Shown here piece by piece: positions 1-64,000 of a stretch of 64,000 nucleotides of DNA. The notes under the pieces are model-generated. The model was not told the DNA's origin and did not search any database. It saw only the letters and a program-made list of their open reading frames with translations. The stretch comes from Escherichia phage EJP2. The stretch is taken from the sequence record OQ411014.1; one strand, 5' to 3'. A program made the translations under genes and the position numbers. Positions within the stretch are counted from its first letter, which is position 1. Every line of letters starts with the position of its first letter.

Positions 1-165
1 TACTCATATGTGTTTGTACAAAAGGGATAACATCATTGACCAAAAGTTCTTTGATGTTATCAACAATTAATATTATAAAAACACTAACAAATATACACGC
101 TAGTGATGTTATAAATCGAATGATTTTTTGTTTTTTATCTATATGCCCTTGCATGTCACACCTCA

Positions 166-906
166 TTAAAAAGATATATAATATCCAACATCACTGGCAA
201 CCTGGATAGCGATATCTCTGTATTTTTTAGCTTCATCTTCCGATTCAGGTACTTTTAAGAAATACACGCTAACATAACCTTCAATACTGATATAACGGAT
301 TGGTGCAGATACTAAGTATTTTGCTCCGTCATAAACCATTGATGGGAAGTTGATAGGTGAAAGATATTCATCTCTTGCCTCGTAATCAGGTTTTAAATAC
401 TCACTTGTAATACGTTGTAAATCAACTGAGTAAATTTTCCCTTTTAGCAATGTATTGGATTGTGCCCGGAAAGCACTGATAGGTAACCAATTTAGATGGT
501 ACTTATCGTACACCAAGTTAGTTTTCTGACTAACCTGTCCAGTCACTAATACTCTACCTTGATAAAAGGTATCATTATCTGGAACAAATTTATAAACCAA
601 TATCATCGCAATATCATCTGAATATTTCAATATAAAACGATTTGCACCGTCATTAACACTATTGAGATTTTCAGGAGATATTTTATATTTCGCTGGTTTA
701 AAAAGTTCACCAGATGTTGAATTGTTGAGTTTATTATCAATATAGGTAGACCATGATTCAGATGTGACGTATAACCCACCCATCAAAATGAAACATGCTG
801 TAACAACTATTGCCCTTAGAGGGGATAAACTTGAGAATATGTCAAGGATTTTTGTTATCATAGCAGTATCAAAGTCGATCTTCATATCCGTCTTTATCCT
901 CTTCAC
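166..906 (-). CDS. hypothetical membrane-anchored protein
   Basis: 246-codon minus-strand ORF with one N-terminal hydrophobic segment; start ambiguous (GTG at 906, or ATG at 885 with AGGA upstream). Confidence 0.5.
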
Positions 907-949
907 TGTTTTTTTTTATTATGTAATATTATTTACTAAAAAATGCATA

Positions 950-982
950 AAAATGAGACAGTACGGAGATTTGTGATATAAT
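950..982 (+). promoter_or_regulatory. sigma70-type extended -10 promoter (TGTGATATAAT at 972-982)
   Basis: exact TGTGATATAAT about 25 nt upstream of the 1007 start; same 11-mer recurs before other operons. Confidence 0.55.
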
Positions 983-1006
983 ATTCAAAACATACCGGAG
1001 CAAAAC

Positions 1007-1384
1007 ATGAATTTTATCGTTACGTATGCACAAATACTTGGACTCAACATCATGCTGATTATAATCGCATGTACATCACCAACTGCTGCATTTAGCACTT
1101 ACTTGGTACTATGTATAGTTTCACTCGTGATTGCTATAGTGTACCGTACCCTCTTCACCAGAGCATTAGGTGGTGAGCTTGATATTCCACATGAATGGAA
1201 GTTCATACCACATACATTCCCTAAAGAAAACAAAGTAACATACATTTGTAGTACTATCATTCATATGGGATTGAGTATTTTTATTCTACATTCGTTTGTA
1301 CTTCCAATCATGATGCTTGTGATTTTGGTAGTTCGAATTTATAATTGTAATTTATTTGAGAAGATTCTTTTATGTCAAAAATGA
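1007..1384 (+). CDS. small hydrophobic membrane protein
   Basis: 125-aa ORF, mostly hydrophobic; first gene after promoter. Confidence 0.55.
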   Translation: MNFIVTYAQILGLNIMLIIIACTSPTAAFSTYLVLCIVSLVIAIVYRTLFTRALGGELDIPHEWKFIPHTFPKENKVTYICSTIIHMGLSIFILHSFVLPIMMLVILVVRIYNCNLFEKILLCQK

Positions 1385-1872
1385 TTTTATGCACAAACTC
1401 CAATGGTGGTATTGGTTATCAAAATACTATTCCCTGGCATAGCTCTGCGGATTTCAAACATTTCAAAGAAGAAACCACTGGTAAGATTGTAGTAATGGGA
1501 TATAAAACGTGGAAATCTCTTCCACGCAAACCATTACCTGGACGTATGAACATCGTGTTGGTATCTCGTGATTACATTTCTCGTGAAGAAGTTGATTCTG
1601 ATCCTTCAGTACTGTTCCTACCAGAAACAAGCCTACGTAGTATTATTCATAACAACCCTGATTGTGTTATTATGGGTGGTGCTCGGATTTACAAAATGGC
1701 ATTACCTTATATCGACACTGTAGTACTGAGTATTGTTGATAATACTGAAGTGTGTGATACGTTCTTCAAATTAGATGAAGAAGCTGAATCATTGAACTTG
1801 ACATTGGAACTCGCTTCCGTGAAAGTACTGGAAGATTCCACTATGGTTGAATACTGGAGTAATTTGAAATGA
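1372..1872 (+). CDS. frd: dihydrofolate reductase
   Basis: N-terminus [10 protein letters not shown]...[37 protein letters not shown] matches the DHFR fold signature. Confidence 0.9.
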
Positions 1873-2309
1873 CAACTTTTACGCTTTACACTGATGGTTC
1901 ATGTCTTGGAAACCCAGGACCAGGCGGTGTAGGTATTGTAGTACTGAAGGATGGTGTAGAAGATGCACGTTTATCTTTTGGAGAAGCACATACAACTAAT
2001 AACCGAATGGAACTGATGGCATCACTATCAGGTATTGCGTATGTAAAAGAAACATATGGCTATGATAGTAAAATCAAAGTCATCTCCGATTCTAAGTATG
2101 TAGTTGATGGTATGACTGCATGGCGACATGGTTGGAAAAAGAAGAACTGGTCAGGGTGCAATAAGAACCTTGACATTTGGCAACAAATAGATATACTAGG
2201 TGATGATTGTGAATTCCAATGGGTGAAAGCTCATAATAAAGATTTCTACAATGAAATTGCCGATGAATTGGCACGAACCGCAGCACAAGAAATATCTAAG
2301 TCTCAATAG
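1869..2309 (+). CDS. rnhA: ribonuclease HI (RNase H type 1)
   Basis: [14 protein letters not shown]...[10 protein letters not shown]...SDSKYV, near-identical motifs to bacterial RNase HI; start overlaps frd stop. Confidence 0.9.
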
Positions 2310-2346
2310 TCACACGAAGTGACAGGAACACATAAAGGGAATTATA

Positions 2347-62252: not shown

Positions 62253-62258
62253 GGCTCT

Positions 62259-62723
62259 ATGAGTGTATTTGATTTGGTATCTAGTATTTCGTGGATTGAA
62301 GTAATAATCTTTATTGTACTTAGTGCAGTACTGTTCATGTTCATGTTCAACGATGATTACACGTACTGTAAAAAGATTCATAAAGCATGTGCAGAACCAG
62401 TATGGAAATCATTTTGGTATATGCAGTTCATCCCGAATAAGTTCATACGACCGTTTGAAAGCTGGTGTGATGTTTCAACCAGAACAGTCCCCACGATTGA
62501 AACGATTTTATCTCTCTATGAAGATAATCGAGATTCGTTGATTATCAAACTTATACCTACATTAGATGATGATACAATCGAATTCATATGCAAGAGATTA
62601 CCATCCGTATCAATTAGGGTTAGTAACAAAATGGTTGTGAACTACAGGACTGAGCATGTGATTCCACCACGAGTTCTTGTGGGTTTGTTGAATATGTACG
62701 AAATAGAACGAAAGAAAATCTAG
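62259..62723 (+). CDS. membrane-anchored hypothetical protein
   Basis: N-terminal TM; 154 aa. Confidence 0.5.
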   Translation: MSVFDLVSSISWIEVIIFIVLSAVLFMFMFNDDYTYCKKIHKACAEPVWKSFWYMQFIPNKFIRPFESWCDVSTRTVPTIETILSLYEDNRDSLIIKLIPTLDDDTIEFICKRLPSVSIRVSNKMVVNYRTEHVIPPRVLVGLLNMYEIERKKI

Positions 62724-62724
62724 A

Positions 62725-62748
62725 CATATACTTTGAGTGTGTTATAAT
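62725..62748 (+). promoter_or_regulatory. extended -10 promoter (TGTGTTATAAT at 62738-62748)
   Basis: variant of recurring 11-mer. Confidence 0.45.
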
Positions 62749-62780
62749 ACAGTCATCAAATAACAAGAAGAGAGGTTTAT

Positions 62781-63230
62781 ATGAACGTACTAGGAACGAA
62801 GTTCAGTACTGCAATGGGTGCACGTAATGGTTGGTTTACTATCAATGAAGTACTGGACGATACTTTCAAACATTACACGTTCAATCAGTGCCTAAAACTC
62901 AAAGTAACTCCAGAAACTAAAGATGACATGAACTTCATCGAGTGGGTTATGTATTGGGAAGGTTCACCCGTTGCAGTGCATTTACACGTTCTAACTACAG
63001 TATTGAGTACTGGTTATGTGAAAGCAACTGTCATCTCTAAGCGTCATGTATTCACTGATGAAATTGGTGAATTCCCAGGTAAACAAGCAATCATTGATGG
63101 TTACATGATTGATGGGAAATTCATGGATAAGAAGGGTGCAGAGGCATATCATACTCGTAAGCTAATGAACGGGAACTTCCGTCCAGCAGCTAAGATCCCT
63201 GATGCAGTCATTCAACCTAAACGTAAGTAA
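62781..63230 (+). CDS. hypothetical protein
   Basis: 149-aa ORF with AGAGAGG RBS. Confidence 0.55.
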   Translation: MNVLGTKFSTAMGARNGWFTINEVLDDTFKHYTFNQCLKLKVTPETKDDMNFIEWVMYWEGSPVAVHLHVLTTVLSTGYVKATVISKRHVFTDEIGEFPGKQAIIDGYMIDGKFMDKKGAEAYHTRKLMNGNFRPAAKIPDAVIQPKRK

Positions 63231-63279
63231 TGTAGTCCCTCCTTAACTGGGGGGATTTAAACACATAAGGACAAAATAA

Positions 63280-63705
63280 ATGTTCAAATATTGTTTCCGT
63301 ACGTATGTAGTACTGTTCTTAGTACCAGCACTGTACTTGATTACTGCACAACTTAGTAAAATCTTCGAAAGTCTTAGCTTTTTGAATTTTACTGCACCAG
63401 AACAGTACAAAATTCTATTGACAATAATGTACGTTTTTTCTTTCATATTGTCAGTACTGATCATTTTCAATTCAGGATGTGACTACCGAGAGTTTCATAT
63501 TTTCAGAAACTTCAAGAACGTAACGTACTCAAAGTTCTGGAGTTATATACTCGCAGTCCCTGTTGTATTGAATTTCCATATTGAGGGCTTCTCGTTCACA
63601 ACTTTTATGCTCTTCATTGAACCAATTGCAATCTATATGTACATCCATCAACATAACCGATTCGTATTGAGTCATAATCTAGTCCACGTAGAGGAACAAC
63701 CATGA
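63280..63705 (+). CDS. polytopic membrane protein
   Basis: several hydrophobic segments. Confidence 0.5.
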   Translation: MFKYCFRTYVVLFLVPALYLITAQLSKIFESLSFLNFTAPEQYKILLTIMYVFSFILSVLIIFNSGCDYREFHIFRNFKNVTYSKFWSYILAVPVVLNFHIEGFSFTTFMLFIEPIAIYMYIHQHNRFVLSHNLVHVEEQP

Positions 63706-64000
63706 ATACGTATATCAGTGGGTTTTACAAGTACTACCTATCGTTCATAACTATATTTGCTATTCTGTTATTGAATGAAACAGAACAATTTGGATCAAAA
63801 TTCCTATCAGAAGGACTAGGAATCTTCCTTCAGGTTATCTTTGCACTGATGGCTGCTATATCAATGCCAGTACTGATCTATGGTATTCATCTTGTTGCGA
63901 GCGATGACCAGGATAGTAAGGACTCGTGTATCCGTGAGTACTGCCAAGCAGCAAAATACAGTACTATAAGTTCTATGATACCGTTTAGTCTAATTATTGT
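63702..64000 (+). CDS. membrane protein, 3'-truncated by window edge
   Basis: ATG 63702, open to end of window; hydrophobic. Confidence 0.45.
   Translation, partial: MNTYISGFYKYYLSFITIFAILLLNETEQFGSKFLSEGLGIFLQVIFALMAAISMPVLIYGIHLVASDDQDSKDSCIREYCQAAKYSTISSMIPFSLII

Follow-up and report, generated by a model that had tools for sequence, protein, structure and literature searches.

Across a 64,000-nucleotide stretch of the genome of Escherichia phage EJP2 (OQ411014.1), hereafter called the window, the palindrome AGTACT is enriched about tenfold, and it is kept at that density by selection on the DNA itself. We found 230 copies, one site per ~270 bp, compared with 21.9 ± 4.0 expected (maximum, 33) in dinucleotide-preserving shuffles, an enrichment of 10.9x. 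AGTACT is the sole strongly enriched palindromic hexamer in the window, the runner-up reaching 1.9x. These counts bear out the window-wide overrepresentation reported in an earlier note on this DNA, whose example coordinates are all correct except 3719-3724, which should be 3718-3723. We regard AGTACT as a highly iterated palindrome that is kept by selection and, tentatively, as one that a symmetric, dimeric protein may read as a genome-wide mark of phage identity.

The enrichment is a property of the DNA rather than of the encoded peptides, as the earlier note had argued from the different reading frames in which the motif falls. That note had proposed a codon-preserving null as a check, and the enrichment survives it: when synonymous codons are shuffled within genes, keeping the proteins and the codon usage of each gene, coding DNA is expected to hold 52.8 ± 5.8 AGTACT sites and in fact holds 200 (z score, 25.6). 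Whole-codon shuffles give an expectation of 26 sites. The motif occurs in genes of both orientations and in all three frames; with both gene strands pooled, frame 0 (Ser-Thr) holds 91 sites, frame 1 (x-Tyr-x) holds 39, and frame 2 (x-Val-Leu) holds 70. It is also abundant in the 6.2 kb of noncoding DNA, which carries 30 sites versus 1.9 expected (15.5x, compared with 10.4x in coding DNA). The protein-preserving shuffles, the spread over frames, and the noncoding enrichment together rule out a peptide, codon, or tRNA cause. An origin in peptide or tandem repeats was rejected as well, the sites in the window being dispersed, in three frames, and Poisson distributed per gene. Among the 129 Ser-Thr dipeptides, 91 are spelled AGT-ACT (19 expected). 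Moreover, Ser-Thr (129 versus 80), Val-Leu (154 versus 109), Gln-Tyr (58 versus 34), and Tyr-Cys dipeptides are themselves in excess; therefore, the DNA word has shaped the protein sequences and not the reverse.

In the lineage of the window, the selected unit is the 8-bp palindrome CAGTACTG, of which there are 78 copies versus 0.74 expected (106x); coding DNA contains 67 of them versus 6.6 under the same protein-preserving shuffle. The flanks of the hexamer are symmetric, with C at position -1 in 125 of the 230 sites and G at position +1 in 126. Enrichment is graded and supermultiplicative as flank matches are added. Among words of the form xGTACy, it rises from 1 to 2x with no matching flank to 2.2 to 2.5x with one and 10.9x for AGTACT; among those of the form xAGTACTy, it rises from 1.4 to 6x with no outer C or G to 9 to 17x with one and 106x for CAGTACTG. 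Such a ladder fits what is expected if a dimer recognizes the whole duplex site. The rarest and least-favored AGTACT octamer is GAGTACTC. Symmetry stops at 8 bp, as ACAGTACTGA, with 18 copies, is more frequent than the palindromic TCAGTACTGA, with 12. The 12-mer TTCAGTACTGAA, which the earlier note had singled out, is present in six copies versus 0.02 expected, at exactly the coordinates claimed; Phe-Ser-Thr-Glu is encoded by three of these and x-Ser-Val-Leu-Lys by a fourth, and the other two lie between genes. With symmetry ending at 8 bp and codon context explaining the rest, the 12-mer is a by-product of contexts such as Phe-Ser-Thr-Glu and no separate unit. The field of sites and the six 12-mers, none of which has an assigned strand, are as follows.

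1-64000: field of 230 AGTACT sites, 78 of them as CAGTACTG; mean spacing of 274 bp, Poisson-like.
9305-9316: TTCAGTACTGAA, intergenic, directly behind the stop codon that ends the topoisomerase II large-subunit gene and just before a terminator-like hairpin.
17349-17360: TTCAGTACTGAA in gene 17317-17997, frame 2, Pro-Ser-Val-Leu-Lys.
28236-28247: TTCAGTACTGAA in gene 28095-28541, frame 0, Phe-Ser-Thr-Glu.
28356-28367: second copy of TTCAGTACTGAA in gene 28095-28541, frame 0, Phe-Ser-Thr-Glu.
35985-35996: TTCAGTACTGAA in gene 35970-36488, frame 0, Phe-Ser-Thr-Glu.
46897-46908: TTCAGTACTGAA, intergenic.

Comparisons with related phages, made on parts of each genome, show that the sites are maintained by selection. 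The nearest genome found is that of Erwinia phage Hallingskeid, with 69% nucleotide identity and 64% amino acid identity over 47 orthologues; phages GAP32 and CBB provided a second, closer pair. The conservation controls were modeled on those used for HIP1 (highly iterated palindrome 1) of cyanobacteria. Where the amino acids are unchanged, AGTACT is identical in 80.4% of cases versus 34.2% for control hexamers between the window and Hallingskeid, and in 77.9% versus 54.0% between GAP32 and CBB. Relative to composition-matched palindromes, AGTACT is conserved in 37.1% versus 15.4% of cases in the first pair and in 67.5% versus 41.8% in the second. The codons AGT, ACT, GTA, and TAC are each better conserved within the motif than elsewhere in both pairs, and the amino acids beneath the sites are conserved no more than average. 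Judged by these alignments, which show conservation beyond codon, composition, and amino acid controls, the sites are under purifying selection acting on DNA. One-mismatch variants are conserved in 18.5% of cases versus 15.4% for controls in the first pair and in 41.9% versus 41.8% in the second. Between distant genera, only 14 to 21% of sites are shared, versus a background of 11 to 13% for any hexamer; thus, site positions turn over between genera while density is kept.

The arrangement of the sites is close to random. Spacing in the window is Poisson-like, with a coefficient of variation of 0.92 versus 0.99 for random placement (P = 0.13) and no significant gap. Sites per gene scale with gene length (chi-square per degree of freedom, 0.92), 34 genes are site free versus 30.2 expected, and bias along genes is not significant. 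The periodicity that the earlier note had suggested looking for did not materialize, as no period in the window replicated in relatives. AGTACT pairs 11 bp apart (AGTACT-N5-AGTACT) occur five times versus 0.83 expected in the window, an excess that is absent from Hallingskeid and other relatives, and excesses at spacings of 35 and 53 bp probably reflect inherited shared sites. Three of the 11-bp pairs lie outside the provisional gene calls.

29500-29516, no strand assigned: AGTACT pair 11 bp apart, AGTACTacaatAGTACT.
55291-55307 and 58482-58498: further 11-bp AGTACT pairs.

Nor is AGTACT a promoter or operator element. The window has 27 near-perfect sigma70 consensus promoters (TTGACA-N16-18-TATAAT, at most one mismatch), every one on the plus strand, including those at 4341, 18827, 20727, 22674, 34965, 43058, 47030, 49354, 50701, 51934, 57154, and 61050; this unusually high density suggests heavy use of host RNA polymerase. 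Three of the 27 contain AGTACT versus 3.9 expected from its overall density, and only 1.5% of sites follow TTGAC. The sites in promoter spacers to which the earlier note had pointed (34965, 50701, and 61050) are real, but the association is not specific and the examples are therefore incidental.

34965-34993, plus strand: sigma70-like consensus promoter TTGAC[AGTACT]G...TATAAT, the motif overlapping the -35 hexamer.
50701-50737, plus strand: consensus promoter carrying two copies of AGTACT, one within the spacer at 50715 and the other at 50732, just downstream of the -10 element.
61050-61078, plus strand: consensus promoter TTGAC[AGTACT]G...TATAAT.

The window is distantly related to the RaK2-like jumbo phages that infect Enterobacterales and have genomes of ~350 kb (Asteriusvirus, Mimasvirus, Eneladusvirus, and Alcyoneusvirus), and in every RaK2-like enterobacterial genus sampled, AGTACT is the top palindrome, at 6 to 12x. 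The enriched genomes are those of Ec-M-J/121Q, GAP32, CBB, fENko-Kae01, Munch, RaK2, Serratia BF, and Hallingskeid. A clade pool of 452 kb of RaK2-like enterobacterial jumbo phage DNA holds 1,247 AGTACT sites versus 150 expected. The five regions sampled in CBB span early, structural, and replication genes, and all of them show enrichment, of 7 to 15x; extrapolation from the window gives a total of ~1,300 copies for a ~360-kb genome. Neither the AGTACT enrichment nor the GCGC exclusion described below is seen in the nearest outgroups whose topoisomerases are homologous, Sinorhizobium phage Phosso and Stenotrophomonas phage CM1. The outer flank differs by lineage: the window, Hallingskeid, and RaK2 favor C..G, Serratia BF favors A..T, and GAP32, CBB, Munch, and fENko-Kae01 have no outer flank preference. 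Such lineage-specific flanks despite overlapping host ranges fit a reader that evolves with the phage.

The enrichment is paired with the complete absence of a second palindrome. GCGC is absent from the window (0 versus 77 expected) and from the clade pool (0 versus 478 expected), and AGTACT enrichment and zero GCGC co-occur in every sampled RaK2-like enterobacterial jumbo genus. The host baseline, a single 50-kb sample of one species (E. coli K-12), is the inverse, with 3 AGTACT sites versus 11.6 expected and 342 GCGC sites versus 215 expected. That is one AGTACT per ~17 kb rather than one per ~270 bp as in the phage, and ~7 GCGC per kb; the contrast between phage and host sample is thus ~60-fold for AGTACT and absolute for GCGC. 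Mimicry of host oligonucleotide usage is rejected by this inverse pattern. Two other coliphages point in the same inverse direction and lack AGTACT, namely, phi92 (0 versus 11.9, with normal GCGC) and the P2-like pro147 (0 versus 7.7, with GCGC at 240 versus 135), and Vibrio phage ICP1 has one copy versus 6.9. Avoidance in these three phages fits ScaI/Eco255I-type restriction as a real pressure in enterobacterial and Vibrio hosts, and the tenfold enrichment of the jumbo clade stands out all the more against it.

Other palindromes are missing from the window too. GGTACC is absent (0 versus 7.5) and nearly so across the clade pool, and the hexamers AAGCTT (0 versus 21), CTTAAG (0 versus 21), AGCGCT (0 versus 7.5), and AGGCCT (0 versus 7.5) are lacking; the tetramers TTAA (134 versus 609) and CCGG (19 versus 77) are rare. 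The contrast drawn in the earlier note with the usual avoidance of palindromes by phages is thus upheld, both by these losses and by the avoidance of AGTACT in phages of related hosts. Which hexamers are avoided varies by genus (AAGCTT has a normal frequency in Hallingskeid and GAP32), and this genus-specific avoidance looks like host-specific restriction avoidance. The absolute absence of GCGC suggests that being cut there is lethal, the possible agent being a GCGC nuclease that the phage encodes and directs against host DNA; no gene for such a nuclease was found in the window or the clade loci examined. We also considered a conversion of GCGC to GTAC by double deamination of methylated CpG. 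As no GCGC remains, this process does not maintain the enrichment, and it is also unable to give a flank-specific 10- to 100-fold excess.

The same signature recurs in unrelated phages. We scanned viral contigs (IMG/VR) for three AGTACT sites in a tight cluster. Among the matches listed, most clustered contigs consisted of tandem 7- or 12-bp repeats or encoded Ser/Thr-repeat proteins, with ACTAGT coenriched, and were discarded (L049, L052 to L055, L060, L041, L079, and L116 are repeat driven in this way); three contigs had dispersed enrichment like that of the window. One of these, L048, comes from Pantoea sp. RIT-PI-b and is a prophage whose terminase and portal are of the lambda type. Mangrovibacter plantisponsor carries a relative of this prophage whose TerL is 69% identical, and L030, with the same serine integrase, is a third member of this temperate lambda-like family. 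Pooled over 57.7 kb, the family has 139 AGTACT sites versus 19.3 expected, 0 GCGC versus 67.9, and 1 GGTACC versus 6.7, with synonymous-shuffle z scores of 8 to 10 and the flank grammar of the jumbo clade. L138, a siphovirus tail module, bears the signature as well. Taken individually, the lambda-like carriers (L139 from Pantoea, L140 from Mangrovibacter, L030, and L138) have AGTACT at ~7 to 11x, no GCGC, almost no GGTACC, and a G+C content of 36 to 39%.

The phages with the signature share almost no genes. The sole protein found in both the temperate elements and ~580 kb of jumbo clade DNA is one with a DUF4326 domain, which is widespread in phages and predicted to process ADP-ribose derivatives (phosphatase); no jumbo phage homologues of the early proteins of the temperate family were found. 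A shared gene as the reader in both groups was set aside, the widespread DUF4326 domain being all that was found. In the Pantoea prophage, this domain lies in an operon (L139, 7101 to 8802, minus strand) that encodes DuOB, then a DUF488 protein of the "active N3" subclade, and then an mSLOG+DUF4326 protein, all recently defined domains. That the signature recurs in unrelated phages with so few genes in common favors a host reader or convergence.

How might such a word be used? Our preferred, still tentative, explanation is that a 2-fold symmetric (dimeric) DNA-binding or DNA-modifying protein reads AGTACT wherever it is present. The high, even density of sites would mark the whole phage chromosome as phage, density itself being the selected trait, and the complete exclusion of GCGC would be a mirror-image mark. 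A mark of this kind could confine phage-specific transactions to phage DNA, be it a protective coat or modification, recombination-dependent replication, or the compaction and packaging of the chromosome, and it would leave host DNA exposed to GCGC-directed attack. The clade has genes for recombination-dependent replication (UvsX, UvsW, gp46/47, and Endo VII). We infer the symmetric protein reader from the grammar of the site, and the self/non-self purpose and the place of GCGC exclusion in the same logic from the distribution of the two words; the lineage-specific flanks favor a reader encoded by the phage.

Several points weigh against this explanation. The self/non-self logic and the link to GCGC rest on correlation, and the host side of the comparison is the single E. 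coli sample. No reader protein was identified in the window or the clade loci examined, and none of the three methyltransferase families of the clade fits AGTACT. Unless the reader is a host protein, phages would have had to evolve or acquire it on more than one occasion. Of the functions listed in the earlier note (a binding or cleavage site, a modification target, nicking or packaging punctuation, or a recombination hotspot), none could be confirmed, and the assumption that a phage protein is the reader has become less certain now that unrelated lambda-like phages are seen to share the signature with only DUF4326 detected in common.

A broader form of the idea strikes us as rather doubtful but worth stating. 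AGTACT saturation and GCGC exclusion would form a two-word code that makes the chromosomes of unrelated Enterobacterales phages, namely, the ~350-kb RaK2-like jumbo phages and the lambda-like temperate family in Pantoea and Mangrovibacter, the inverse of their host. Dedicated proteins would read the code: one would protect, organize, or replicate AGTACT-dense DNA, and a GCGC-directed nuclease would destroy the rest. No base modification would be needed.

The closest known analogue is HIP1 (GCGATCGC) of cyanobacteria, together with the alternate HIPs, and it brings with it a further explanation, which we consider unlikely: an orphan methyltransferase would mark AGTACT or its GTAC core, and methyl-directed mismatch repair, recombination, or replication control would need or create the dense sites. 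Elhai proposed a methyl-directed process for cyanobacterial HIP1. Like HIP1, a short palindrome overrepresented 15- to 300-fold (PMC5861425, PMC4390886), the phage word is strongly enriched (hexamer, 11x; octamer, 106x), and CAGTACTG lies well above the threshold of at least ~15-fold for a palindromic octamer of this type. Both occur roughly once per gene, in all frames and also in noncoding DNA, and between genomes both are better conserved than control palindromes are and than codon effects would explain (PMC5861425, PMC4390886). Both have a nested core, GTAC within AGTACT within CAGTACTG here and GATC within CGATCG within GCGATCGC there, with one-base deviations concentrated at the outer positions. 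The clade encodes three or four DNA methyltransferases, and the avoidance of AGTACT by phi92, ICP1, and pro147 suggests a restriction threat from which the sites would probably need protection. The differences are that AGTACT resides in phage rather than cellular genomes, that it is itself AT rich rather than GC rich, that it has no evident cognate methyltransferase, that its one-off variants are conserved like controls and not preferentially as in HIP1, and that it is coupled to absolute GCGC exclusion with a usage inverse to that of the host sample. HIP1 also has a long-range (10- to 90-kb) periodicity of site density; the spacing of AGTACT, followed here over a 64-kb window, is Poisson-like at short range.

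The methyltransferases examined offer no evident writer for AGTACT. The window encodes one of them.

36761-37618, plus strand: C5-cytosine DNA methyltransferase, 285 amino acids, with a very short target recognition region and HhaI/DNMT3-like catalytic motifs.

This enzyme is about the size of the DNMT3 catalytic domain and has homologues with 45 to 52% identity in phi92-like phages and ICP1. It is probably not the writer: the virion DNA of RaK2, which has the orthologue, shows CpG methylation by bisulfite sequencing according to the RaK2 paper, AGTACT contains no CpG, and the homologues in phi92 and ICP1 sit in AGTACT-avoiding genomes. A Dam-family adenine methyltransferase occurs in all jumbo genera among the matches listed, and its characterized homologue, M.Phi93DAM, methylates GATC. 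An N4-cytosine methyltransferase resembling M.PvuII (CAGCTG) is patchy, occurring only in Mimasvirus, Eneladusvirus, Kaldavass, and XbC2, and is missing from four enriched lineages (Asteriusvirus, RaK2, Hallingskeid, and Munch); the CBB enzyme (CBB_157, L017, 7428 to 8288) has a DUF4326 gene three genes upstream. No AGTACT-specific methyltransferase was evident in the window or the loci examined, specificity not being readable from sequence alone, and neither a cognate AGTACT endonuclease nor a cognate methylase was found there. In the 58 kb of the temperate family examined, no methyltransferase was seen. The absence of any depleted one-mismatch neighbor, described below, also speaks against a methylation target of the HIP1 type, as does the control-like conservation of the one-off variants.

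That the reader is instead a conserved Enterobacterales protein, SlmA or another, which the phages exploit or titrate, for instance to block division or to recruit host DNA machinery, seems to us quite improbable. Every lineage with the signature infects Enterobacterales, the two phage groups are unrelated with only the one DUF4326-domain protein detected in common, and the SlmA-binding site GTGAGTACTCAC has exactly AGTACT as its 6-bp core (PMC3020112); that site is likewise palindromic, read as a duplex, and found in the same bacterial order. The essential outer bases of that site, however, are absent or disfavored around phage AGTACT (G1, T2, and the purine at position 3), and we rejected an SlmA site on this ground. 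No full SlmA site occurs in ~380 kb of phage DNA, and half-site extensions number 54 versus 59 expected there and 5 versus 8.1 in the temperate family. A purine at position -1 has a frequency of 0.29 versus a background of 0.53 in the window and of 0.25 to 0.33 versus 0.54 more widely. Single-base flanks were tabulated for the window, L138, Serratia BF, and the temperate family; in each of these lineages no base is rarer than G at -1, and C at +1 is disfavored as well. GAGTACTC is the least-favored octamer. There are ~50 SlmA sites per host chromosome versus the ~1,300 AGTACT sites of a phage genome. Flank preference also differs among phages with overlapping hosts, the E. coli phages phi92 and pro147 avoid AGTACT, and no other host protein of AGTACT specificity could be named.

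Neutral molecular drive, in which sequence-biased repair or gene conversion resembling very-short-patch repair recreates a functionless word, is very unlikely. If it acted on mismatches, such a drive could give rise to the enrichment and also make the sites look conserved, and 5 to 6% of one-off words are AGTACT in the partner genome. Very-short-patch repair, however, is expected to deplete neighboring words, as for CTAG in E. coli, and all nine classes of one-mismatch neighbors in the window stand at 0.9 to 2.5x (outer-position variants, 2.2 to 2.5x; inner-position variants, 0.9 to 2.1x). Because none is depleted and the outer-position variants are in fact enriched, a repair-type mutational drive is argued against. 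AGTACT has, in addition, displaced amino acid choices, and the temperate family, if replicated and repaired by host enzymes like normal prophages, differs completely from the E. coli sample. The loci examined yielded no Vsr-like or MutH-like gene, and the Munch gene annotated as a "type II restriction endonuclease" encodes a generic PD-(D/E)XK, MGME1-like exonuclease.

It is least probable of all that AGTACT is a preferred cleavage or strand passage site (A|GTAC|T) of the phage type II topoisomerase that speeds the unlinking of a very large genome: this 2-fold symmetric dimer, encoded by every jumbo clade member (7334-10781 in the window), cuts with a 4-bp 5' stagger whose geometry a symmetrically flanked GTAC fits, and quinolone-trapped gyrase cleaves before G (PMC6379681), but known type II motifs are long and degenerate rather than sharp 6- to 8-mers (PMC6379681), Phosso (46% topoisomerase identity) and other outgroups with a homologous enzyme lack the enrichment, and no topoisomerase was found in the examined parts of the lambda-like signature phages.

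Other systems share features with AGTACT. Chi, the DNA uptake and uptake signal sequences (DUS/USS), and the FtsK-orienting polar sequences (KOPS) are likewise short words enriched genome-wide, frame independent in coding DNA, and subject to turnover of positions with density kept; they are read by DNA-processing machines and tell self from foreign DNA. They differ in being asymmetric, with Chi and KOPS biased in strand or orientation, whereas AGTACT is a perfect palindrome with symmetric flanks. ScaI and Eco255I recognize the same 6 bp, and its avoidance by the other phages sampled from these or related hosts is what a restriction target should show. Phage genomes are normally poor in such targets, whereas this one is enriched tenfold, and no ScaI-like enzyme or methylase was found in the window or the loci examined.

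The window itself has a G+C content of 37% and ~117 open reading frames by provisional gene calls, 107 of them on the plus strand. Identifiable genes encode DHFR, RNase H, a Dda-like helicase, IF-3, topoisomerase II, a clamp loader, and the C5-cytosine methyltransferase; the remaining genes are many, small, and of unknown function. A megablast search of the window returned only patchy matches of ~75%, and the phage collection (release of August 2025) contains no phage closely related to this one. By these comparisons it probably represents a new genus-level lineage within the RaK2-like jumbo phages.

Phages are textbook cases of palindrome avoidance, and a selected, hyperabundant palindrome in a jumbo clade and, independently, in small temperate phages is the opposite of that pattern. 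The motif is unmentioned in papers on CBB, on RaK2, and on jumbo phage comparative genomics, and full-text phage searches returned nothing relevant. What is new is a viral, AT-rich, host-inverse HIP coupled to the exclusion of a second palindrome. It gives HIP1 a small and genetically tractable counterpart among viruses that infect E. coli, Klebsiella, and Erwinia. If the self/non-self code is real, viruses would have in it a new means of setting their own DNA apart from that of the host, and the AGTACT-rich, GCGC-free signature would be useful for spotting such phages in metagenomes and would be a design constraint for engineering them.

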